Assembly (NCBI GenBank): GCA_963803145.1
Contig: CAWDLW010000012.1
Span: 128,001 to 192,000 of the forward strand
DNA: 64,000 nt
Source of the DNA: Methanotrichaceae archaeon
Lineage (GTDB): Archaea; Halobacteriota; Methanosarcinia; Methanotrichales; Methanotrichaceae
Direction of reading: 5' to 3'
Within the stretch, counting starts at the first letter, position 1. Every line of letters starts with the position of its first letter. Under the pieces are notes generated by a model. That model made no database searches. It was not told the DNA's origin and worked only from the letters and a program-made list of their open reading frames with translations. Shown in pieces: positions 5,974 to 58,115 of the stretch. Made by a program: the position numbers and the translations under genes.

Positions 5974-6084
5974 GCTCGCCGGGCATCCAGGCAGTCTGCC
6001 ATCGGATGCCTGCAAAGAATAGGGCAGATTCGCAGGAATTCTTCCAAAGAACATTTAAGTTAGCTAGGTTGATATTATAAATCA

Positions 6085-6237
6085 TTGCCCACACTCACAG
6101 CAGTTATCCACAGAGAAGAAGACATGTACATTGCTGAGTGCTCGGAGGTAGGTACGGCAAGTCAAGGTAAGACCATCGAGGAGGCAGTGAAAAATCTCAA
6201 GGAAGCTACAGAGCTATATCTGGAGGAGTTTCCCTGA
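6085..6237 (+). CDS. HicB-like (UPF0150) antitoxin, short or frameshifted at the 3' end; no hicA partner seen
   Basis: Not in ORF track; TTG start, TLTAVIHREEDMYIAECSEVGTASQGKTIEEAVKNLKEATELYLEE. Confidence 0.8.
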   Translation: MPTLTAVIHREEDMYIAECSEVGTASQGKTIEEAVKNLKEATELYLEEFP

Positions 6238-6266
6238 AGGATAGGGAGCGTTAATCACCATAAAGG

Positions 6267-6779
6267 ATGTGTAGTGTGTCACTATCAAAGGCTGAGCTAA
6301 ACGCCATTTTTCGAACGCTTGCAGAGCGTTATGCAACAGCAGCCAAAATGGTCCTCGGAGATCAACTAGTTTCAATAGCCCTCTACGGCTCAGTAGCCCG
6401 CAGCCAGGCAGGCCCATCCTCCGACATCGACCTCTTCGTCGTGCTTCAGGATGCTCCCTCAGGCATGCTGGCCAGACGTCGTCTTCTCCAGCCTGTGCGT
6501 GACTCCCTCACAGCGGAGCTGGAAGGTCTATGGGAACAAGGCATCTACACTGATTTCATCGAGGTGATCCGCTCTAGGACAGAAGTTCTGCAGTTCCATC
6601 CCCTCTATCTGGATATGTCGCAGGATGCCATCCTGCTCTATGATCGTGACCAATTTTTGCATACTCTGCTTGAAAAGGTCAGAGAGCGCCTGCAAAGGGC
6701 GGGCGCTGAGCGCTATGCTATGGGAAAACATTGGTACTGGGATATGAAACAGGCCTTTGTGTCTGGGGAGGTTGTGTGA
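6267..6779 (+). CDS. Minimal nucleotidyltransferase (MNT) antitoxin
   Basis: LYGSVARSQAGPSSDIDLFVV (GS-x10-DxD); start may be GTG at 6276. Confidence 0.9.
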   Translation: MCSVSLSKAELNAIFRTLAERYATAAKMVLGDQLVSIALYGSVARSQAGPSSDIDLFVVLQDAPSGMLARRRLLQPVRDSLTAELEGLWEQGIYTDFIEVIRSRTEVLQFHPLYLDMSQDAILLYDRDQFLHTLLEKVRERLQRAGAERYAMGKHWYWDMKQAFVSGEVV

Positions 6780-46818: not shown

Positions 46819-48156
46819 CTATCTCAGTTCTATCGTGCCAATCTCTTGCCTATCAGTCGTCAAGTTGGCGATCACTACTGAACTGTTTGTATTTCCGGCA
46901 GCATCCTTCGCCATTACCTTAACATTATCACCATCTGCAATCCATGGAGCTGTGCTGTTCGCCAGGTAATCAGCGAAATCGCAATCTATGCTGAACCAGC
47001 CAGAGGAGCTTGGATCCGCGGTCTTCACAACGCCTGTTCTCTCGTTCGTTGCAGTGATAGTAACATTAGCAGGATCTGTAGCATTGACATTTCCGATTAT
47101 CGGATGTAGCTTGTTTGTTGTGTATTCAGAGAAGCCCATTCGGTCAAAGCTGTAGCTTACGCCGTTCCTGGGCTTTAGAGATCCGTTGAACTGGGATACC
47201 TGCTCGAAGACAATATAGCTCGGCATAGGCGCTGGAAAATTCACTGGCAGAGGCACATTCTTGAGCACATTTATCATCAGCTCGAGCTTGTATTCGCCAT
47301 TGTCGGCCTCGACTTTGTAGGCAGTGGGATACATCCTCGACGTGATCTGATCTAGCGAGAAGTCTGCGTAGTTCAGCTTAACCTGAGAGCTTGAGAACTT
47401 GATTGTCTCTCCAGCGTGCTGTATTCCCAGAATGGTGTTTCTATCCTCGCCTAACACATCCCCTAGCGTCAGGCTGAAGCCATCTTTAGGATTCGATACC
47501 TGTGCCCAGTTCCACTTAGCATCATTGAATGCCCACCTGCCCCAATTGTGATCATGATAGCCGACGGCGTCTATGCTTCTCGTCTGGTTGCCCAGGATTA
47601 TGGTTCCTTTGACGGTTGCAGATGGCATATAGACCAGCCATTTCATCCAGTCGCCCTTGAGGTGGCCTACATGCATCTGAACTGGTGTAGGGAACCAGGA
47701 GCTGACTGCGATAGTATATGTAAGATCCCATGCAATAGGCGTATCTGACAGAGTATCTCTTGCAGAGCCGAATATCCTGTAGGCTGATGTATTCAGAGCA
47801 CTGAAGCCGTTTTGATCGATATCGATTGTTGGATTGCTGCGATCTCCTCCGAAGCCACGGCTGCTATGTATGCCCAAAAGAGGCGGCATGCCGTCTACAA
47901 GCACAAGTGCAATCGCCTGTATCCTCCGCTGACCGGTTAAATTATCAGGATCGCTCAGGAAGTAGTTAAAGAAGAACTGCGTATCGTTTGAAACTCCATT
48001 GAAGTACCACCATTCGTTATAGAGCTTATCATCAATGTTGTTGGCCATGTAATGATAGGCATCATCCTTTAAGGTTGGTTCTGCAGCCAAGCCACTGCAG
48101 CACGAAAAGATGAATACTGTTAATGCTGCTAATAGATAATTTTTATAAGTTCTCAT
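46819..48156 (-). CDS. Secreted AttH/tocopherol-cyclase-like (lipocalin-fold) protein
   Basis: Signal peptide; EWWYF, GYHDHNWG, WNWAQ motifs. Confidence 0.65.
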   Translation of the reverse strand: MRTYKNYLLAALTVFIFSCCSGLAAEPTLKDDAYHYMANNIDDKLYNEWWYFNGVSNDTQFFFNYFLSDPDNLTGQRRIQAIALVLVDGMPPLLGIHSSRGFGGDRSNPTIDIDQNGFSALNTSAYRIFGSARDTLSDTPIAWDLTYTIAVSSWFPTPVQMHVGHLKGDWMKWLVYMPSATVKGTIILGNQTRSIDAVGYHDHNWGRWAFNDAKWNWAQVSNPKDGFSLTLGDVLGEDRNTILGIQHAGETIKFSSSQVKLNYADFSLDQITSRMYPTAYKVEADNGEYKLELMINVLKNVPLPVNFPAPMPSYIVFEQVSQFNGSLKPRNGVSYSFDRMGFSEYTTNKLHPIIGNVNATDPANVTITATNERTGVVKTADPSSSGWFSIDCDFADYLANSTAPWIADGDNVKVMAKDAAGNTNSSVVIANLTTDRQEIGTIELR

Positions 48157-48248
48157 TTAAGCGCCCTCCTTCCCTGAACCCGCGCCTGAGGACTAATGGC
48201 TTTTGTATTATTTAACAATATTTCTAGGTTCTATGCTCCTTATTATTA

Positions 48249-48677
48249 TCAATCCAAAAGTTCAACTGCTTCCTCTGCGGTCGCAGCCTTCAGCGTTCCA
48301 GGAATATCCCAGCTACCAAGGCTTATCACGCGTTTTCCCATCTTCAGGGCGAGGGCAATTTCCGAGAGAGTTCCATACTCTCCAGGCAAAGCGATAATTG
48401 CATCAGCGCTTTTTACTATTATCACATTTCTAGCATGGCCCATGCCTGTGGATATGGCTATCCCGACGCATTTATTTGCATCCCATTTTTCGCCCGGAAG
48501 TATGCCAACGGCTATGCCTCCTGCATCCTTAGCACCGCAGCAGACCGCCTCCATCACACCAGTCAGGCCGCCGCAGATCGGCGTATGGCCGTTTTCTGCA
48601 AGCAGCCGACCTAGGGTATATGCGGTCCTTTTAACCTCAGAGCTGCACTCAGCCCCACCAATTACAGCTATCTGCAT
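48249..48677 (-). CDS. LOG-family Rossmann protein (TIGR00725-like)
   Basis: CGGLTGVMEA, TGMGHARN, GEYGTLSE. Confidence 0.9.
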   Translation of the reverse strand: MQIAVIGGAECSSEVKRTAYTLGRLLAENGHTPICGGLTGVMEAVCCGAKDAGGIAVGILPGEKWDANKCVGIAISTGMGHARNVIIVKSADAIIALPGEYGTLSEIALALKMGKRVISLGSWDIPGTLKAATAEEAVELLD

Positions 48678-48782
48678 TCAGCGTTCAGCCTCCTCAATTA
48701 TACGGCCATTACCGTAAATATCTATCGTCTTGCACCGTCTTTTAGCGCAAAGTATTCATATACCTCCCAAGAGTTATTTTTT

Positions 48783-51578
48783 GTGAACACATTCAGTCGG
48801 CTCTATCCCTCAATTGGAAAGATGCTAGCGGAGCAATCGATCACAGAGCCGACGCTGCCGCAAAAGCTGGCGATTCCTGAGATCTTGGATGGCAGAAACA
48901 TTCTTCTGATAGCTCCTACGGGCACCGGCAAGACTGAAGCTGCAGCTCTTCCAGTTCTCCATAAAATCCTAGCGGAGGAGCGTTCTGGAACACAGGCTAT
49001 CTATATCACGCCTCTGCGCGCCCTGAACAGGGATATGCTCAGACGTTTCGAAGAGTGGGGTGAGCGGCTGAACATATCAATCGCAGTTCGCCATGGAGAT
49101 ACAAGCAAAAGCGATAGAAGAAGACAGTCATTGAGTCCGCCTGATCTTTTGATCACTACCCCAGAAACTCTGCAGGTGATGCTCACTGGAAAGCGGCTGC
49201 GCAAAAATCTATCGAGCGTGAAGACAGTAATAGTCGATGAGATCCATGAGCTTGCATCATCAAAGAGAGGATCGCAGCTCTTTGTCCTTCTCGAGCGGCT
49301 GGTCGAGATCGCCGGCGAGTTCCAAAGGATCGGCCTGTCTGCTACTGTCGGATCGCCTGAGCAGGTTGCAAGGCTTCTTGCAGGCTCGCAAAGGCCATAT
49401 AAAATCATCAGGGCAGATATCCAGAGGGCTAGCGATTTTAAGATTGTCAGCCCTAACCCTACGCGAGCAGATTATGCTCTCGCAAGCCAGCTGGAATGCG
49501 ATCCTAGGTTAGCTGCACAGATTGGTTGGATCAGGGAGCAGGTCAAACTAAAGAAGTGTCTTATTTTCGTCAACACAAGACAGGCGGCTGAAGTTCTGGG
49601 CTCCAGGTTCAGGCTGCTTGGAGAGCCGATAGGAGTTCATCACGGGAGCCTCTCAGCCGAGACCAGGGTCGAGGCGGAGGAGGCGTTCAAAGGAGGCGCT
49701 CTTCGCGGCCTTATCTGCACATCATCAATGGAGCTTGGAATCGACATCGGTGATGTCGATCATGTCATCCAGTACAGCTCTCCTCGTGAGGTCTCAAGGC
49801 TGCTACAGCGAGTAGGTCGTTCAGGCCATAAGATAGGCCGAACGGCAGAAGGCACAATAATTGCCACATGCCCGGATGATATCGCCGAAGCATGTGCAAT
49901 TGCAAGACGAGCTGGAGAGGCAATGCTCGAAGAGATTCAGATTCACGAGAAGCCGATGGATGCTCTCGCAAATCAGATTGTAGGATTAGAGCTGGACTTC
50001 GGCGACATAAGCCTCCAGCAAGCTCATAGAATCATAACCAGGGCTTATCCCTTCCGTGACCTAACGCTTGATGAGCTGAGGAAAGTAGCAGAGCAGATAG
50101 CCGAAAGCAGACTTACACGAATTCAGGGTGATATCCTCCAGAGGACACGTAAGGCCCGCGAGTACTACTACGAGAACCTCTCGATGATTCCCGATGAGAA
50201 GAGATACAATGTCTACGACATCATCGGCCGCAAATCGATAGGAACATTGGATGAGGCATTTGTAGTCAGCTATGCCCAGCCTGGTGCAACTTTTGTAACA
50301 AAGGGCGAGATCTGGGAGATCTCGGAGATCGACGAGGACGAGATCAAGGTCATGCCTATTCAGCGCAGCGGCGAAATTCCATCCTGGAGCGGTGAAGAAA
50401 TACCTGTTCCATTCGATGTGGCACAGGAGGTAGGCAGGATAAGGGAAAGTGTCCGACTATATCTGGAATCCGATGGCAAGGATGCTGCTGTAAACTGGCT
50501 GACCGAAAGCTATCCTGTTGATCGTGAGGCTGCAGCAGAGTTTATCGATCTGATAGAGATGCAGATAAGGAAAAATCTGCCGGTCCCCGATGACAAACAT
50601 ATCGTTATTGAGGGAGGCGGCACCGAAGTTATCATAAACTCATGCTTCGGCCACAAGACAAACGATACCCTGGGAAGGGCAATAACGGCTATGCTCTCTG
50701 CAAAGTTCGGATCAAGCGTTGCTTCAGAGATAGATCCTTACAGGATAGAGCTGACATTGCCGCGTTCCGTGATCGCTGAGGAGATCGCAAAAACGATCAT
50801 GGAGCTGAAACCCGAGCATCTGGAGCCGATCCTTGAGATGACCCTCAAGAATACCACTCTGCTCAAGTGGAAGATGGTTCATATCGCCAGGAAGTTCGGA
50901 GCTCTATCTAGGGATGTGGACTTCCAGAGAATTAGCATAAACAGGCTGCTCTCAGTATTCGAGGGAACGCCAATGTACCGTGAAGCAATACGGGAAATAT
51001 ACCAGGATCGGTTAGATCTCCCCCGTGCCAGGCAAATACTCGAAGAGATTCACAAAGGCAACATCGTTATTACCACCAGCAGCCCGAGTCCAATAGGTGC
51101 CAGCGGCAGGGGAGGCGGCAGAGATGTGACGTCGCCGGAGCATGCAGATGGCGCAGTAATAGAGCTTCTGAAATCAAGGATCATGAACGATTCCGTGATA
51201 TTATTCTGCGTCAACTGCAAGAAGTGGAAGTCGCTCCGTGCAGTGGGCCGCGTTCCGGAGCAGCCTGAATGTCCCATCTGCGGCTCCAAGATGGTCGCAG
51301 CCCTCAAGCCCTGGGAAGAAGAGGAGATAAAGGTAGTCAAGAAGCCCGAAAAGAAGAAGACGCCAGAAGATCGTCGAAGGACAAAGCGGGTCTTCAGGAA
51401 TGCCAATCTTGTCTTGAGCTATGGCAAAACTGCGGCAATTGCGCTTGCGAGCCGCGGACTTGGGCCCGAGACCGCGGCAAGAGTAATCGGCAAGCTTCGA
51501 ACAGATGAGCTTGAGTTCTATCGGGATATCCTGAAGGCGGAGAGGGAGTATGCGAGGACGAAGAGGTTCTGGAGTTAA
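48783..51578 (+). CDS. lhr: Lhr-like ATP-dependent DEAD/DEAH helicase
   Basis: APTGTGKT, TTPETL, DEIH, SAT, HHGSL, QRVGRSGH, C-terminal Zn finger. Confidence 0.92.
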   Translation: MNTFSRLYPSIGKMLAEQSITEPTLPQKLAIPEILDGRNILLIAPTGTGKTEAAALPVLHKILAEERSGTQAIYITPLRALNRDMLRRFEEWGERLNISIAVRHGDTSKSDRRRQSLSPPDLLITTPETLQVMLTGKRLRKNLSSVKTVIVDEIHELASSKRGSQLFVLLERLVEIAGEFQRIGLSATVGSPEQVARLLAGSQRPYKIIRADIQRASDFKIVSPNPTRADYALASQLECDPRLAAQIGWIREQVKLKKCLIFVNTRQAAEVLGSRFRLLGEPIGVHHGSLSAETRVEAEEAFKGGALRGLICTSSMELGIDIGDVDHVIQYSSPREVSRLLQRVGRSGHKIGRTAEGTIIATCPDDIAEACAIARRAGEAMLEEIQIHEKPMDALANQIVGLELDFGDISLQQAHRIITRAYPFRDLTLDELRKVAEQIAESRLTRIQGDILQRTRKAREYYYENLSMIPDEKRYNVYDIIGRKSIGTLDEAFVVSYAQPGATFVTKGEIWEISEIDEDEIKVMPIQRSGEIPSWSGEEIPVPFDVAQEVGRIRESVRLYLESDGKDAAVNWLTESYPVDREAAAEFIDLIEMQIRKNLPVPDDKHIVIEGGGTEVIINSCFGHKTNDTLGRAITAMLSAKFGSSVASEIDPYRIELTLPRSVIAEEIAKTIMELKPEHLEPILEMTLKNTTLLKWKMVHIARKFGALSRDVDFQRISINRLLSVFEGTPMYREAIREIYQDRLDLPRARQILEEIHKGNIVITTSSPSPIGASGRGGGRDVTSPEHADGAVIELLKSRIMNDSVILFCVNCKKWKSLRAVGRVPEQPECPICGSKMVAALKPWEEEEIKVVKKPEKKKTPEDRRRTKRVFRNANLVLSYGKTAAIALASRGLGPETAARVIGKLRTDELEFYRDILKAEREYARTKRFWS

Positions 51579-51926
51579 GATCGATTGCTCCTCTGATCTT
51601 GAAATCTTCAGATCCGCAGGAGAGCATATCGCTATGATCACTTTAGATTATCTCAATCGTCTATATGTTCCAATAATTCTTCACCATTAGTTTTGTGGCC
51701 CAGAGGTATGTTTTAAATCTCCCTCCTTTACTTACCGCTGGGTCATCTCTTCTCTGATCATCTAACATAGCAAGATCAATGAAGTTTGTGACTCAAGGCC
51801 GATGAAACTGATGCGCTCATATCCACGATAAAGCCCTAGGGCCATAGGCTACAGCTATATGGATATGCTTGCCTTCCAATAAGCCATTAAACCATCAAGA
51901 TAATCAGCACCCACAAGGTGCAAAAC

Positions 51927-52031
51927 ATGGTCGAAGTTGGAGATGCCGCTCCAGAGTTCTGTCTGCCGGCAGGCGACGAGCAAGAGGATGCCTTAGCTCA
52001 TACCGTGGCAGATGGGTTGCGCTTTATTTTT
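51927..52031 (+). pseudogene. Peroxiredoxin (Bcp) 5' fragment
   Basis: MVEVGDAAPEFCLP, then in another frame YRGRWVALYF; truncated before the catalytic Cys. Confidence 0.7.
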
Positions 52032-52691
52032 AAACGTAATACCCCACAGCTTGTTGTGGATGGGATAAAGGGCATCCGTATACAACTTAGGGATGGATCA
52101 GCTAGCCAATTGTGATTTAATGCGGCGACGCCTCGCATGCCTCACTGTTTGCAGCGTGAGATAAAATACCGGTAAGAACCTTTTTCATCGAACTTGGAAG
52201 GATCACCTATAATTATATTATCCTTGCCATTCTGTTAGCTGTCGCTTTACATTTTCAAAGGTTGGGTCTTTGATCCTTTCGAAAATTTTAAGCGCAGACT
52301 GAGCATAGTCAACAGCCTTAGATTGTTCCCCTATCTTATATAATACGAGGCTTATATTCCATAAGGCATTGCCCTCTCCAGCAGGGACTCCAATCTTACG
52401 GAAGATTTCTAATGATTGCTCATAGGATTCGATGGCCTGGCGAGATTCGCCTAGTCTCTCATAGGCCACACCAAGGTTGCCTAAAACGTTTGCCTTTCCT
52501 TTAAGATCTCCAATATTATTAGCAATTTCTAATCTCTTTTCATAATATTCAATTGCCTGGATAGGTTCGCCTAACGCACAGTATGCAATGCCTAAATTAT
52601 TTAAATCTGCACATTCTCCTTTCAGATCTCTTAATTCTCTGTCAATTATCAGAGCTTTCTTATAAAATTCAATAGCATATTGAAGCTTACC

Positions 52692-53829
52692 GAGGATTCC
52701 TATTTACTTGTATCCTAAGGGCGGTTTTTTTAAATCGACTCTAGATTTGCCTTACGATGTTCGCTATTCTTGGTCTAACCTGTTTTTTTTCAGTTAATTC
52801 TCGATAGCATCCGCTATCCCTAAATGACATTTGCCTTTTTAAGAGTACAAAGCTGATACAAGTTAAAAGCGAAAGCGGTAACTATCATTTTCACATGCAC
52901 TCTTCTGACTGATGTAACAAGCACTCTTCCAGCCTCGAAAACCCTCTTGATTACAGCATGGGGCCTTTCGCCAGGCGATCTGAGGATACTGATCAACTGA
53001 TTGCGTTCTTTATCAAGATCAGAAAGAGGTTTATCAGTAGTCCTGCGCTTCATTGTAAAATCAATACCTTTGGCCTTCACACCGAAATATCCTCTATCTC
53101 TGAAAACTGGCACGCCAGGGATAGAGAGATCAACCTGACTGTCATGCAGTGATGCAGTCGAGGTCTCTATATCACGTATTAGGCTGTAATCGATATCAGT
53201 TATTTGATGTAACTTATATCCGAAGTGAGTTTCATTGCCTTTCTTAGCCCATGTGCCATCCTTGCTGCGACGTGTCTTAGCCTCATCGCCACGTGGTTTC
53301 TTTGACTCCGATGATCCTGGATCTGCTTCTATAAAGGTAGCATCCTGAACAATTCCGCGTCTGATCTTCAATCCTTTTGCATCCAACTGTCTTTGAAGTT
53401 CAGCCCAAACAAGCCTATCTGTTCCTGTCTCCGCCATTCGTTCTTTGAATGACCATATAGTTCTGGAATCAGGGAACTGATCAGGAAAACCAAGAAATGC
53501 CATAAATGATATGCGATCAGCCATTTGCCGTTCAACAGCCAGATCGCTCAGGCCATACCACTGCTGGAGAATCAGGATCCTGAACATTAGAATAACATCA
53601 CAGTTGGGCCTTCCTCCCTTCTCGGTCTTATTAGTATACATCCCTTCCAGAAGAGGACGAAAGGGAACCCAATTGATCAATCCAGATACTTGAGCTAATT
53701 TAGACTCCTCTTGCTTTGCATTTAGACCTTTCAATACCCAAGTAGTAAAAGAATCCATAACAATAAATACTATTTGCTGTATTTAACACTTTCGATGCTA
53801 AAGCAGGGGGTAGGTTTATAGGAATCCTC
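52692..53829 (-). mobile_element. IS5-family insertion sequence, 1138 bp
   Basis: TIRs GAGGATTCCTATTTAC / GTTTATAGGAATCCTC (14/16); 4-bp TSD TACC at 52688-52691 and 53830-53833. Confidence 0.95.
52820..53758 (-). CDS. IS5-family DDE transposase (intact, 312 aa)
   Basis: GGRP..LQQWYGLSD..PDSRTIW, VQDATF, FGYKLH, DRGY, RSPGERP. Confidence 0.95.
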   Translation of the reverse strand: MDSFTTWVLKGLNAKQEESKLAQVSGLINWVPFRPLLEGMYTNKTEKGGRPNCDVILMFRILILQQWYGLSDLAVERQMADRISFMAFLGFPDQFPDSRTIWSFKERMAETGTDRLVWAELQRQLDAKGLKIRRGIVQDATFIEADPGSSESKKPRGDEAKTRRSKDGTWAKKGNETHFGYKLHQITDIDYSLIRDIETSTASLHDSQVDLSIPGVPVFRDRGYFGVKAKGIDFTMKRRTTDKPLSDLDKERNQLISILRSPGERPHAVIKRVFEAGRVLVTSVRRVHVKMIVTAFAFNLYQLCTLKKANVI

Positions 53830-55850
53830 TACCTATTGATAGATAAATAGTCCCTATATTCCCTAGAACTGTTTCTTCTCCGACAAGATCTTTAATTTCT
53901 TGGGAGATCTTAAGGCTTTTATTATAGAAATCTAATGCAATATGAGGCTTACCTAGTTTTAAATATATATTACCTAGATCACATAATGCTGTATATTCTC
54001 CCTTGATATCCCTTAAATAACATGAAATTTCCAATCGCTTTTCATGCATCTGAATACCCTGTTGAAATTTCCCAGTTTGCGAATAGATTCTGCCTAAAGA
54101 ACTCAAAGCTTTGCTTGCCCCTCTTAAATCCCCTCTCCCTAAATGGATTTCTAAAGCCTTCCGATACGATTCATCAGCTTTTTTTAACTTCCCCAGATGC
54201 TGATAAACCCTACCGAGATTGCCACAGGCGTTGCCTTCGCCATACTTATCTCCAATTTTATGGGCTATATGAAGAAATCTCTTAAAAAGTTTAAGGGCAT
54301 TATGGTAATCTCCAAAATGAATATTGGCGTTACCCATATTGCCTAGTACATAACACTCTAATTGGCGATTTCTAATCTTATGGGCGACAGCAAGTGCCTG
54401 ATTATAATAATCAATAGCAAGATGCATATCTCCTAGATCAGCACAAGCTAAGCCTAACAGATTAAGGAAAGCTCCCTCGTTGTTGTAATCTCCAATAGCA
54501 AGCGCAGCCTGTAAGCCTGCTTTGGCTACCTTAACTCTTTCTGTTGAATAGCCTTGTAAATCTAAGTAATTATCGAACATTAAGGTTATTTTACAGACAG
54601 CATCCCATTCACTAGCATCAAGGCAAGCAGATTGTAGCGCTAAAATATGAGCGCGATTAGTATCAATGATGATCTTACCTGGTAGACCCGGACCCCCTTG
54701 CTCCTTTAATAAGTTACAGTAATATTGAGCAAGGCGTAATAACATATCATGCTCCGTTACTAGATCTTTTCGTGCGTATGTATATGCTAATGTATGCGCT
54801 ACGTGATAGAACGTATCAGGTCTTATTATCAAACCGTAATCTACTAGCTCCCCCAAATGGCGATCAGCTTCATGTCTAGGTATATTTAAGGCTGTAGCGA
54901 TGAGTTCTGGACCAAAAGGGCTCATTGCTAATATGCCAGCCACCCTAAATGAGGCGCGTGATAACTCACTTAGCTGATCTAAGCTACGCTTCATTAATAC
55001 AGGTATACTTTGATGCTGCCGCTCTCCTAGGTCTAGGGCTGCCAGAGGTGTGGCCTCAAGCCATGCAAGATAATCCTCGGCTTGTTGATGGCATTGAGAC
55101 ATATATTTTCCTGCTAGAACGATCGCAAGGGGTAAGCCCCCCAGGAATTCACAAATCCTATTAGCTGATACTTCATCGGCTGCATAATTATGCCCCCATG
55201 CACGTAATAGCTGGATAGCTTGGTCTTGTGGTAAAGGTGATAAATCACTCCAATCGGCAGGAGCATCTCTATGACGTCGACTAGTAATGATAATACCACA
55301 ACTCACAGCAACCTCTAAGATTACATCCAAATTATCGGCAGATTCAGCACCATCTAATATAAGAAGGGCTTTGCGACCTGCCAATGCACGGCGAGCAGTA
55401 TCGATTGGGCTGGGTCGTGGATCTTCTCCAAATGCACGGGCTAATGCCTCTAAGGCAAGACTGGCCTGGGGTTGATGGTAAAATGTATGAAAAATCACTC
55501 CATCTGGAAATTGACTGGGGGGACTATTATCAGGGGCAAGGCGCCAAAGTATCTCAGATACAAGAGCAGTCTTGCCGATACCTCCTGGACCACATAATGT
55601 AACTGCATAACCAGGCTTTAATGAATCTAATAAGGTTGCAAGTTCCTTTTCACGGCCAACAAAATGGTGGGTTCGGGGCGGCTTCTGCAGAGGGATATGT
55701 AGTGAAAGAGACGGCGCGTTAATAATGACTGGCCCATGAAACTTTCCAGAAAGCACTGGGCCATCTGCATTTCCCCTTATGTTAGTCTGGGAACCATCTC
55801 CAGCTTTATCCTGTTGGCTCATGGTGGATTCCCTTTATTATCCGATATTT

Positions 55851-56288
55851 TCATTTGGATTCTCTTGCGTTAACTGAACCGTGGAAATTGCCTGAAAGCA
55901 CAGGGCCATTTACATTACCAGCGATGTTTGTCTGTGAGCCATGGATTATTTGTCCACGCTGATCGAAAACACTGCTGGCTGTACCTTTCTCTTCAATTGC
56001 TTCAATTAACTTGCCTACTTCTTCAGCGAACTTCGTGTCCTTTTCCATTTTTTCAGCTAAGACATCCTTAAGTGCTGCCTGCCTATCTTCTGACTCAGGT
56101 TTCTCTTTTGCGCGAGCTAGCGTTTGCTCGGCGAATGTGTCTCCTTTGAATTTATTCTCGACTGCCTGGCATAATTCCACAAACTTTTTGCCGAGTCCCT
56201 CGCCAGCAGTTTTGATAAATGAATCTCCTCCCTTGGCAAGATAGGGGGCTGCTGCAGCTGCGATTAATCCAACATCGACAGGTAACAT
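55851..56288 (-). CDS. Small helical (Bell/HeLo-like) putative effector with C-terminal amyloid-like motif
   Basis: Hydrophobic N-terminal helix (VGLIAAAAAPYL), helical body, C-terminal GSQTNIAGNVNGPVLSGNFHGSV matching the NLR N-terminus; ends 28 nt before the NLR ATG. Confidence 0.8.
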   Translation of the reverse strand: MLPVDVGLIAAAAAPYLAKGGDSFIKTAGEGLGKKFVELCQAVENKFKGDTFAEQTLARAKEKPESEDRQAALKDVLAEKMEKDTKFAEEVGKLIEAIEEKGTASSVFDQRGQIIHGSQTNIAGNVNGPVLSGNFHGSVNARESK

Positions 56289-56441: not shown

Positions 56442-57760
56442 CTATTTATCACGCTTTTGTTTTTCAATAGGGCTGTCGAGCGTAACTTCATGAATGAAAG
56501 TTCCTGAAAGTACGTGTCCATGCACATCGCCGTAAATATTCGTTATGGCTTTTGCTCCTATGAACAAAGAGGTTAATAAGACCAGCTTTAAAGTTTCAAA
56601 TCTCTGTTCTAATGTTGCTGTATCTTGAGATTCTAATAGAGCAAGGGTTTCAAGATACTCTTGTGCCTCCTTGGGAAATTTTTTGCAGTGAAGCTTCAGA
56701 AGTGGAACAATCTCCAGCAAATAACGATCTGCAGCTATTGGTGAGCTGATATCTTTCAACCCCTTAGTTGCATCGTAAGTAAGCTTTCCGAAATCTTCAA
56801 GAGCAGTTCCCTTAGAGCTTTTACAGAGCTTCCGTGCTGCATCCTCTACATCCTTAAATATAGTCTTGATTTTATCATCGATGATCGGGATTCCCCTTTC
56901 AACCATAGCAGCATCTACTACCTTGGAAGCAAAAGGTGCTCTGCCCCTTACCCTCTCCAAGCAATCCACTGCCTGGAAGCAATATCTAGTGTAGGCTTTG
57001 AGATCCTGTTTCCGAGATATCATATCTTCCACGGTATATGTCTTGACCTCCCAGAGAGCCTTAGATAGGTTATCCACAGCTTCAAGGAGGATCTCCTCCA
57101 TACTCTCAGAGACTTTTACTGCCTCCTTAGCCTCTTAGCCTCAGCTAGATATCTCTGGATCTCCTCTGCCTTAGATACATCTCTAAACAAAAGACTGTGT
57201 AGTGATTTATAAAAGGGCAGACAAAAAACAGCATGGTTCTCATTTCTCCAATTCCCCGGGCTATCCGAGGATTTTTGGAAGAATTCGATCGCTTCTTCTA
57301 GGTGAGCTTTGAGATCCCTATCATCGGCCTCAGTTGCCTTGAAGATGCATGCCCGACCTAAGGAATGATAGGAGATAGACCTGATGGCTTCATCCTTCTC
57401 CTTAGAGAGCCTATCTAATTCTCTCCAAACTAGAGACTTGTAAGGCAAGCTAGGGAATAACGATCCAAGCACGCAGCCTACTTCCCATCGTACATAGCGA
57501 TTCCGGTCATTAGCTAATCTGTGAAGATCCTGCCATACAAGATGATCGCTAGGCAAGTTAGGGAACGCCAACTCAATCGCGGCAACTGCATATTTTCGCA
57601 CAAGAAAATGGTGATCCTGGGTTAGCCTATGTAGGTCTTGCCAGGCAGCTTCTTTGTCATCCAGATGGTCAAACTCGTTTCCGAGCAGTGTTGCAGCATG
57701 TTGCCTATGTTCTGTACTCTCAGAAATTGACATCTCATGGATCTCTGCGTAGGATACCAA
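56442..57760 (-). pseudogene. HEAT-repeat protein with C-terminal amyloid-like motif, frameshifted by an 8-bp duplication
   Basis: AWQDLHRL..D...VR HEAT-like repeats; TTAGCCTC x2 at 57127-57142; removing one copy joins ORFs 57116-57760 and 56442-57101 (436 aa); C-terminal TNIYGDVHGHVLSGTF. Confidence 0.8.
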
Positions 57761-57890: not shown

Positions 57891-58115
57891 TTAGCCTTTA
57901 TTCTCCTTTCTCATCACCTCCACCCGCACCGAAAACACTGCCGACTCTAATGGCTCATCCAGCGTATAGAATGCCTCTCTTGAATGCTTCTTGGCCATTT
58001 CGGCGATCATCTGACCGTAAATCTGGTCTTCCTTCTTCAGCGCCTTCGAAGCCTTCAGCCACCTTGTCGAGACTTCCTTCACGGCCATTCTCACGATCTC
58101 AATACTTCGGCCCAC
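57891..58115 (-). CDS. Small helical protein resembling the MGR-start proteins usually encoded beside archaeal PolB2 genes
   Basis: MGRS..VRM..K....RW.KA.KALKKEDQ..G...A.MAK.HS...F....EPLESAVFSV; family recognised from memory only. Confidence 0.55.
   Translation of the reverse strand: MGRSIEIVRMAVKEVSTRWLKASKALKKEDQIYGQMIAEMAKKHSREAFYTLDEPLESAVFSVRVEVMRKENKG

Follow-up and report, generated by a model that had tools for sequence, protein, structure and literature searches.

A HEAT-repeat gene beside a Bell-like/NLR pair in a Methanotrichaceae archaeon carries a divergent copy of their shared motif

Known motif-sharing systems and the locus under study

Signalling through amyloid motifs between NOD-like receptors (NLRs) and cell-death effectors is known mainly from pairs of proteins. 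We analyzed a 64,000-nt stretch of a Methanotrichaceae archaeon (GCA_963803145.1, contig CAWDLW010000012.1, positions 128,001-192,000 of the forward strand; hereafter the window, with position 1 as its first letter), in which a HEAT-repeat gene at 56,442-57,760 ends in a copy of the motif carried by both the Bell-like gene and the NB-ARC/TPR gene next to it. On the minus strand, the order from head to tail is HEAT 5' open reading frame (ORF), HEAT 3' ORF, Bell-like gene, and NB-ARC/TPR gene, all co-oriented, with gaps of 153 nt from the HEAT gene to the Bell-like gene and 28 nt from the latter to the NLR. An earlier note on this DNA, made from the letters alone, had proposed a three-component amyloid circuit at this place. 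Judged by its sequence, the HEAT gene probably once plugged into its neighbours' Bell/NLR circuit as an extra component.

According to the accessible text of Dyrka et al. 2020 (10.1101/2020.01.06.895854), the bacterial amyloid signaling sequence motifs BASS1-10 are common to the C-termini of Bell-domain proteins and the N-termini of adjacent NLRs, Bell domains occur in Methanothrix soehngenii, and 2 archaeal pairs from Methanosarcinales match none of BASS1-10. Non-Bell carriers described there include alpha/beta-hydrolase, TIR2 and CHAT proteins as well as guanylate cyclase. Like these pairs, the window has a small Bell-like protein whose C-terminus shares a motif with the N-terminus of a collinear, adjacent NB-ARC/TPR protein; unlike them, it has a third carrier beside the pair, belonging to a repeat-protein family and devoid of an enzymatic domain. 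The window motif may represent an unnamed family because the reported archaeal pairs fell outside BASS1-10.

A cluster of 3 adjacent genes, PNT1/HELLP/SBP of Chaetomium globosum, shares one PP amyloid motif, with SBP being a lipase, in the accessible portion of PMC7885112. It resembles the window in combining one NLR, one membrane-targeting death protein, and one further C-terminal carrier. The third fungal protein, however, is a lipase and a clear effector, whereas that of the window is a HEAT plus helical protein from a family that places effectors where the motif now sits; Chaetomium also belongs to another domain of life, and its motif is of another family. In Escherichia coli, Agp (TPR-GreA/B-C-PIN) is reported to activate the Bell-related Bab through a shared BASS11 motif in antiphage defence, and BASS11 is also described with EAD7, CHAT, TIR, NACHT, and NB-ARC (10.1101/2024.11.07.622273, accessible part). 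Bab/Agp thus offers a non-NLR alpha-solenoid repeat protein as the sensor for a Bell-type effector, to which the HEAT protein can be likened by description. The motif of Agp is N-terminal and accompanied by a PIN nuclease, unlike that of the HEAT protein, and Bab/Agp is a pair without an NLR. No kinship in sequence between this system and the HEAT family turned up, none having been looked for. Effector-associated domains (EADs) are described, in what is accessible of PMC7159879, as homotypic adaptors present on a core component and a neighbouring effector, by which effectors are recruited. EAD7 occupies the C-terminal region of 2 relatives of the HEAT protein (P0064 and P0095), where the window copy has its motif; EADs are folded and mostly helical domains, unlike the window motif, a segment of about 23 aa of amyloid-motif type that is disordered in models.

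The word HEAT has 0 occurrences in the accessible text of the 2020 BASS preprint, whose supplementary tables might list the locus, and is absent from the 2025 paper on amyloid signaling motif detection. The accessible literature joining an amyloid signaling motif with a HEAT repeat consisted of fungal NLR papers only.

The motif copy and the protein family that carries it

The HEAT gene and its motif are laid out as follows:

56484..56552, minus strand: HEAT motif copy, 23-aa window KAITNIYGDVHGHVLSGTFIHEV with a 5-residue spacer, matched by both profiles
57116..57760, minus strand: 5' piece of the HEAT gene, ORF 57760..57116 of 214 aa, with about three HEAT repeats plus the beginning of the core
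57126..57141, minus strand: 8-bp tandem duplication, AGGCTAAG twice, shifting the reading frame between the 2 pieces
56442..57134, minus strand: 3' piece of the HEAT gene, helical core (from residue 1 to about 183 in the 219-aa ORF) and motif tail

Positions 56543..56484 encode TNIYGDVHGHVLSGTFIHEV, which is identical to the Bell-like TNIAGNVNGPVLSGNFHGSV at 12 of 20 residues (counted by eye) and at 12 of 23 over a wider span; the earlier note had given 56484-56543 and 12/20, both correct on translation and recount. The significance of this likeness was assessed across the source genome (4.13 Mb; 72,419 six-frame ORFs of at least 30 aa each) with 2 motif profiles that left its own copies out. 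Profile 1 was built from 18 gapless copies at 14 loci of other Methanotrichaceae genomes, and profile 2 from 33 distinct motifs found in 46 of 118 public Bell-like homologues, with the 2 of the source genome omitted. Five ORFs fell below the inclusion threshold of profile 1, namely the Bell-like genes on contigs C34 (1.8e-12) and C12 (5.6e-12), the NLRs on C12 (2.2e-10) and C34 (1.3e-7), and, in fifth place, the HEAT ORF (8.7e-5, 24 bits), with the next match at 0.27. Profile 2 returned the same 5 places, with the HEAT ORF at an E-value of 1.2e-5 and the next match at 0.52. The HEAT ORF was the only match of both profiles that is neither a Bell-like gene nor an NLR. Since 2 profiles built without the source genome find the same 5 places among 72,419 ORFs, the resemblance is not due to chance, and by these profile matches the HEAT motif belongs to the same motif family as the Bell-like and NLR copies. 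A strict regular expression was satisfied at 4 places in all six-frame ORFs, 3 of them the adjacent genes described here and the fourth the Bell-like gene on C34.

The HEAT copy retains T4, N5, I6, G8, V10, G12, V14, L15, S16, G17, F19, and V23 of the motif. Its spacer is of 5 residues, as in the motifs of both neighbours; among the 118 Bell-like homologues, the spacer from TNI to G/A-P is of 5 residues in 47 and of 4 residues in 26, with 45 falling in neither class. Two homologues of the HEAT protein, P0008 and P0016, have motifs of the 4-residue spacer class, and that of P0016 is identical to a 4-spacer Bell motif at 13 of 17 residues.

The motif is also found well beyond the source genome. 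A degenerate DNA pattern of it matched 30 of the 392 genomes of the class Methanosarcinia. The family of the window supplied every convincing in-frame match, 15 of its 104 genomes being matched, the source genome G000 aside; with the pattern reversed as a control, about ten hits (9 on counting) arose in the 392 genomes together. Fourteen loci from 12 family genomes held 21 motif-bearing ORFs. Pfam assigned NB-ARC to 10, Peptidase_C14 to 4, CHAT to 2, and HEAT to 0 of 15 ORFs scanned at these loci, one of which (L079:6365-8440) is an adjacent NLR that lacks this motif. The motif sits at the N-termini of NB-ARC/TPR proteins and, on the effector side (Bell-like, caspase, CHAT), at the effector domain or after it: both CHAT ORFs are ordered Bell-like, motif, CHAT, and the caspase of locus L090 has a C-terminal motif. 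On this sequence evidence, the motif is a genuine NLR-associated family serving several effector types, as the 2020 BASS preprint also describes for bacteria. Clusters of at least 3 motif genes occur in relatives, with a Bell-motif-CHAT gene and NLRs in G040, and a caspase-motif gene plus 2 NLRs in G057.

Several of the motif loci have arrangements of their own. At L087 (G014:C45, 3465-6761), a single 1099-aa frame holds a caspase, the motif, NB-ARC, and TPR, the motif lying between effector and NTPase. The Bell-motif-CHAT protein of L079 (G040:C61, 6365-9705) has a second conserved stretch past the motif, …GGDANDFRG…, which the adjacent NLR repeats at its N-terminus (…MDFRDSKGAII…) and which is also present in L083 and L084 (…GGDAIDMRG and GGEAVDMRG…) and, shortened, in L092 (…GDANDFRGSKGAVI…). 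Judging from these repeated stretches, one effector may bear 2 unlike motifs in tandem for different NLRs at L079. In the source genome itself, contig C34 (L093:5321-8439) holds a second Bell-like/NLR pair, both members with the same motif. Between them is a 149-aa ORF (6006-6452) whose start shows the lead-in half of the motif alone (…FDQRDQIIDGPQINIAIGD…); the stretch of about 110 aa after it has no Pfam family, and the ORF may be an additional component of a different sort. Immediately upstream there is an IS110-type transposase.

The HEAT gene is read today in 2 pieces. Its 214-aa ORF has three AWQDLHRL-type repeats, matches Pfam HEAT_2 with 30.1 bits (cut-off 27.7, E-value 6e-7), contains the start of the core (…SLGRACIFKATEA…FCLPFYKSLHSLLF…), and closes with ...RYLAEAKRLRRQ* at a premature stop from the frameshift. 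The 3' frame is open from 57134, reading EAKEAVKVSESMEE..., with an ATG at 57101 that starts the 219-aa ORF 57101..56442, whose C-terminus is ...AITNIYGDVHGHVLSGTFIHEVTLDSPIEKQKRDK and for which neither a Pfam nor an NCBIfam family was matched. The 2 ORFs lie in different frames because of the 8-bp tandem duplication: homologues cross the duplication point in a single frame, and removing one AGGCTAAG copy in silico gives a single open frame of 436 aa (209 + 8 + 219). The split ORFs are one broken gene. The earlier note's figure of 436 aa for the protein once repaired agrees with this length. The break looks recent, as both pieces have otherwise kept their open frames and their likeness to homologues. 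Programmed frameshifting, which would need a -1 change, is unlikely, as inspection of the 16-nt overlap by eye revealed no slippery site of the form X XXY YYZ. Public read contigs on the stretch came to three 151-nt pieces from 2 of the 3 runs of one study, none spanning 57126-57141; the word shares of the three listed read runs were 0.12, 0.05, and 0.00, with no RNA run among them.

We searched for the HEAT-core family, a large one in Methanosarcinia, among 1.84 billion representative proteins, which gave 241 matches at E<=1e-3, 150 of them listed. Members start with a HEAT array, continue with a conserved helical core of about 250 aa (from …FCLPFY… in the first ORF through most of the second), and close with a variable C-terminal part, typically of 100-200 aa. 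Nearly all 241 homologues match residues 1 to about 180 of the 219-aa ORF inside proteins of 400-1000 aa, and 102 of the 150 listed have at least 150 aa N-terminal to the core, an architecture shared by the window polypeptide, which is now split. With P0008 as the query, 158 of the 392 class genomes matched at E<=1e-10, often several times per genome, and every HEAT-core match in the family genomes lies within a long open frame. By eye, many C-termini show coiled-coil-like sequence and a tail that is hydrophobic or of membrane type (23 of the 150 listed by a crude score). Other C-terminal modules are:

PNP_UDP_1, 3 proteins: P0083, P0096, P0098
Methyltransferase, 7 proteins: P0017, P0043, P0056, P0066, P0099, P0104, P0121
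EAD7-bearing C-termini: P0064, PRTase-CE and EAD7; P0095, EAD7 and TPR
CN_hydrolase, weak match: P0147

From their domain assignments, these modules look like the effectors and adaptors of conflict systems. The shared motif ends 3 of the 150 listed representatives, directly after the core in each: the window ORF, P0008 (496 aa, full length and intact), and P0016 (a 152-aa fragment). P0008 and P0016 are cluster singletons on JGI contigs of 7,343 and 1,146 bp, respectively. The earlier note had asked whether homologues carry the motif at their C-termini, which holds for these 3 and fails for the other 147 listed. In a tree of the core, the 3 motif bearers fall in one well-supported subclade without being monophyletic, and because the supported branches force at least 2 changes, the C-terminal module was exchanged more than once.

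The loci of motif-bearing members were sought in several ways. Residues 330-496 of P0008, used as a query, retrieved P0008 itself only; the 4 loci from a scan of genome contigs were all tail-type and motif-less, and a metagenome scan gave at least 1 locus, of the tail type as well. A G191 match reaching residue 494 of P0008 also proved to be a tail-type protein and was discarded as a carrier. The loci of the 12 closest motif-less homologues in other genomes (4.8-17 kb each) held NB-ARC, Bell-like genes, or the motif in 0 of 12 cases, with controls recovered in 5 of 5. The co-location with NLR or Bell genes that the earlier note had proposed to check is missing around the motif-less copies, whereas the one motif-bearing copy with visible context, that of the window, adjoins both (n = 1). 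The contrast in adjacency between motif-bearing and motif-less copies fits the note's idea, with a single case on the motif-bearing side.

The AlphaFold2 (AF2) model of P0008 is all-helical (predicted local distance difference test, pLDDT, 87.5), with the motif tail, residues 462-496, below 50; Foldseek related it to HEAT/ARM solenoids only, including the PP2A A subunit and importin-alpha (E-values about 1e-4, TM 0.3-0.37). The model of the 219-aa piece has helices to residue 194, and residues 194-219 are almost all below a pLDDT of 50. For the fold of the helical core, Foldseek found nothing in the PDB at E<=1e-3; the VIA-align wide search gave generic helical bundles (best Z 9.3, below the tool's meaningful level for helical proteins), the best match in the protein atlas was a hypothetical protein (score 0.76), and NCBIfam returned nothing. 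No enzymatic or pore-forming domain was found in the HEAT or core parts by Pfam, NCBIfam, or fold searches.

Some relatives show other features worth recording. A tail-type HEAT paralogue of a congener (L096, G002:C1, 3320-19236) lies beside genes for DUF1156, DUF499, and HD proteins and for an SNF2 helicase bearing NOV_C, a neighbourhood that looks like a defence island. The close relative P0011 (630 aa) has a Gly-rich end past its hydrophobic tail (…ISIVGDGNVILGSG…) with a faint likeness to the motif, and P0030, P0088, and P0119 end in other Q/N/G-rich stretches. The Q/N/G-rich tail of P0030 and P0088 was tried as a further motif and rejected, as matches to a DNA pattern of IGNGN.Q were single and scattered over the 392 genomes, and each of three places read was not coding in frame or lay outside the fetched ORFs.

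A proposed second sensor and its rivals

We propose that the intact HEAT protein was a second, NTPase-less sensor, with the motif as its output adaptor to the Bell-like protein, a reading that stays tentative at a probability of roughly 0.4. In this copy, the usual output of a coiled coil with a hydrophobic or membrane tail has given way to one copy of the NLR-associated, amyloid-type signalling motif of the clade. Upon activation, the disordered C-terminal motif would enter or seed the cross-beta assembly that the NLR uses toward the Bell-like protein, so that HEAT sensor and NLR sensor would converge on a single Bell-like executioner. A membrane tail in cis and a motif summoning a membrane-targeting Bell protein in trans could then be equivalent outputs. 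The motif is read as an output because it fills the slot where relatives have membrane tails, enzymes, or EAD7. The reported action of Agp on Bab also speaks for the second-sensor reading. Directly observed are the shared and significant motif, the adjacency of the genes, the modular family, the tail disordered in models, and spacer classes matching those of Bell motifs; we infer the amyloid formation and cross-seeding of the motifs, as well as the direction of signalling and the sensing role of the HEAT array.

A number of observations weigh against the second-sensor reading. In characterised systems, the motif of the sensor is N-terminal and that of the effector C-terminal; the C-terminal motif of the HEAT protein is effector-like. 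No P-loop NTPase family was found in the window pieces, P0008, or P0004, which places the HEAT protein outside the STAND/NLR class (signal transduction ATPases with numerous domains); it is not an NLR but may work in a sensor-like manner. The HEAT copy is the most divergent one, with a mean of 11.6 of 23 identities (range 9-14) to 22 canonical copies, which average 15.4 of 23 among themselves. It shares 12 residues with its own Bell-like neighbour and 11 with its own NLR, while those two share 18 of 23, and motif copies of other genomes are nearer to it (14 of 23) than its own neighbours. Seven of its 23 residues, including those at the near-invariant positions G1, Q3, and P13, occur in 0 of the 22 canonical copies and 0 of the 33 motifs of profile 2, and the conserved upstream FDQRGQ..HG.Q lead-in is missing. 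A search for co-variation between the motif and its particular neighbours found none. The divergence may reflect decay of the broken gene or a different role.

The distribution of the motif is a further point against this reading, with 147 of the 150 listed HEAT-core representatives lacking it, 0 of 33 other family genomes with a homologue aligning beyond residue 183 of the 219-aa ORF, and all 18 of 18 longer homologues covering at most 83% of the query. The coiled-coil segment present in relatives is missing from the motif variants, which also have no oligomerising NTPase. Neither of 2 congeners has the Bell/NLR/HEAT block at the syntenic place, and they hold only distant HEAT paralogues elsewhere. 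With the HEAT gene broken by the 8-bp duplication and the NLR by an insertion sequence (IS), no intact trio exists in this genome. Three-part motif clusters, moreover, are not new, with precedents in the fungal cluster (PMC7885112, accessible portion) and in relatives; of the novelty claimed by the earlier note for a HEAT/Bell/NLR trio, what stands is the HEAT carrier, of which we found no description in the accessible literature. The three-component circuit itself is likewise upheld in part. Its motif is significant genome-wide, belongs to an NLR-associated family, and lies at the variable C-terminal position of the HEAT family, where P0008 and P0016 also end in a motif at the same junction; but the frameshifted HEAT gene and the IS-cut NLR leave no intact three-part circuit here now, and the HEAT copy is the most divergent, its own neighbours not being its closest kin. 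The arrangement in the source genome is decaying or switched off, with the Bell-like gene intact.

The C-terminal place of the motif is shared by all effector-side carriers seen (Bell-like, L090 caspase). It favours the main rival, somewhat doubtful though a real possibility, in which the HEAT protein was instead a second effector or cargo, templated by the activated NLR alongside the Bell-like protein and taken to the assembly or membrane like the lipase SBP of Chaetomium. A fungal NLR is reported to control 2 motif-bearing effectors (PMC7885112, in its accessible portion), and clusters of relatives hold several motif genes. The HEAT and core parts, however, contain no enzymatic or pore-forming domain, the effectors of the family sit in the C-terminal module, so that HEAT and core look regulatory, and a 153-nt gap separates the HEAT gene from the tight Bell-NLR pair. 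A regulator or decoy, whose divergent motif would cap or poison the fibril or titrate the NLR motif and keep the Bell-like protein off, is quite unlikely. The copy diverges at the near-invariant G1, Q3, P13, G21, and P22 with its central core kept, a pattern that might suit a heterotypic, non-propagating binder, but the accessible literature gave no precedent, the P0016 copy is near canonical (13/17), so that divergence is not a family trait, and relaxed selection on a broken gene is a simpler cause.

Unlikely, though less remote, is the alternative of no present function, by which the accessory island is decaying and the gene in it a pseudogene, its motif being a relic of an old fusion, or of recombination with a nearby motif-coding end, that was never selected as a three-part system. 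The frameshift, the recent IS in the NLR, the repeat-bordered island that is absent in congeners, the divergent motif, and the lack of a close intact relative (the best is 62% identical and without the motif) all agree with it. On the other side, the motif is retained at this junction in 2 independent metagenomic homologues, of which P0008 is full-length and intact, the core positions of the motif are all kept, and the break looks recent. That a tail rich in G, N, and S resembles the neighbours' motif by chance or composition alone is very improbable: the motif is short, and the HEAT copy scores 24-27 bits versus 33-53 for canonical copies with profile 1 and 26.5-53 with profile 2, but only 5 of the 72,419 ORFs clear the threshold, the next hit lies apart under both independent profiles (0.27 and 0.52), and the HEAT match lies at a protein terminus, adjoins 2 of the other 4 places, and is repeated in pattern by P0008 and P0016.

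A wider form of the second-sensor reading, which we consider unlikely as a whole, makes the HEAT plus core proteins a large, as yet undescribed family of NTPase-less, modular immune or conflict sensors in Methanosarcinia whose motif variants feed one HEAT/NLR-to-Bell amyloid hub. Its diversifying HEAT array would be coupled to interchangeable outputs, namely membrane tail, PNP_UDP, PRTase-CE, methyltransferase, CN-hydrolase, EAD7, or amyloid motif. If a repeat protein without an NTPase feeds, or is recruited to, the same fibril, the motif would be a general plug, to be compared with death-fold or EAD adaptors and not an NLR-specific device; if the hub reading is true, many sensors would reach one effector through an amyloid in archaea. 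The weight of the case is one broken gene and 2 metagenomic homologues, with neighbours seen for the window copy only (n = 1). The finding points to a very large and unstudied methanogen HEAT-repeat family, present in 158 of 392 class genomes, with swappable, conflict-like C-termini.

Neighbouring genes and locus context

The remaining features of the locus are:

55851..56288, minus strand: Bell-like gene, putative membrane-targeting effector, 145 aa, intact, 153 nt past the HEAT stop
55872..55940, minus strand: C-terminal motif copy of the Bell-like protein, GSQTNIAGNVNGPVLSGNFHGSV, profile 1 E-value 5.6e-12
53816..55822, minus strand: NB-ARC/TPR NLR, 668 aa as now read, 28 nt past the Bell-like stop, its frame closing inside the IS
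55727..55795, minus strand: N-terminal motif copy of the NLR, GSQTNIRGNADGPVLSGKFHGPV, profile 1 E-value 2.2e-10, also matched by the DNA pattern
52692..53829, strand not assigned: IS element, 1138 bp, in the TPR region of the NLR, with a DUF772 + DDE_Tnp_1 transposase at 53758..52820
52218..52691, minus strand: 3' remnant of the NLR, with more TPR repeats to the original stop, Pfam TPR_12 on 52469..52218

The Bell-like protein begins with MLPVDVGLIAAAAAPYL... and ends in ...GSQTNIAGNVNGPVLSGNFHGSVNARESK, with the NLR adjacent. It had 164 homologues at E<=1e-5, mostly of 133-146 aa, several named by their sources as Methanothrix and some as Methanothrix soehngenii. Neither Pfam nor NCBIfam matched it, and a sequence search of the PDB gave only chance rows (E-values of at least 0.057). 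About 20 of its homologues (P0171, P0193, P0218, and others) carry a precomputed Pfam PF20701.5 assignment in the protein collection, which a Pfam scan of three such homologues and the window protein did not reproduce, even at E<=10.

The NLR starts with MSQQDKAGDGSQTNIRGNADGPVLSGKFHGPV... and has Pfam matches to NB-ARC (31.1 bits, cut-off 23.5, residues 63-257) and TPR_12 (103.9 bits, E-value 5e-30), which make it an NLR of the STAND class; its NCBIfam matches are partial. The C-terminal motif of the Bell-like protein and the N-terminal motif of the NLR, 18/23 identical and encoded by genes 28 nt apart, show the layout of pairs of the BASS type and its fungal counterpart (fungal amyloid signaling sequence, FASS), a layout seen again on contig C34 and in other genomes.

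The IS element has perfect 12-nt terminal inverted repeats with TACC on either flank, and the TPR frame resumes directly beyond it, ending ...QLTEWQG* at 52218. The genome holds 13 full-length copies at >=98.4% identity, and because 7 of these are identical (100%), the insertion is taken as recent; the element looks active. Two congeners align to 47000-51580 of the window at 86-89% identity, and synteny stops thereafter; the Bell/NLR/HEAT region is accessory. Short multi-copy repeats border the block at about 57912-58115 (13 BLAST hits in the genome) and about 52018-52160 (3 hits), and many occur in congeners. A 74-aa ORF (57891-58115) sits in one of the bordering repeats, and IS copies border the block too.

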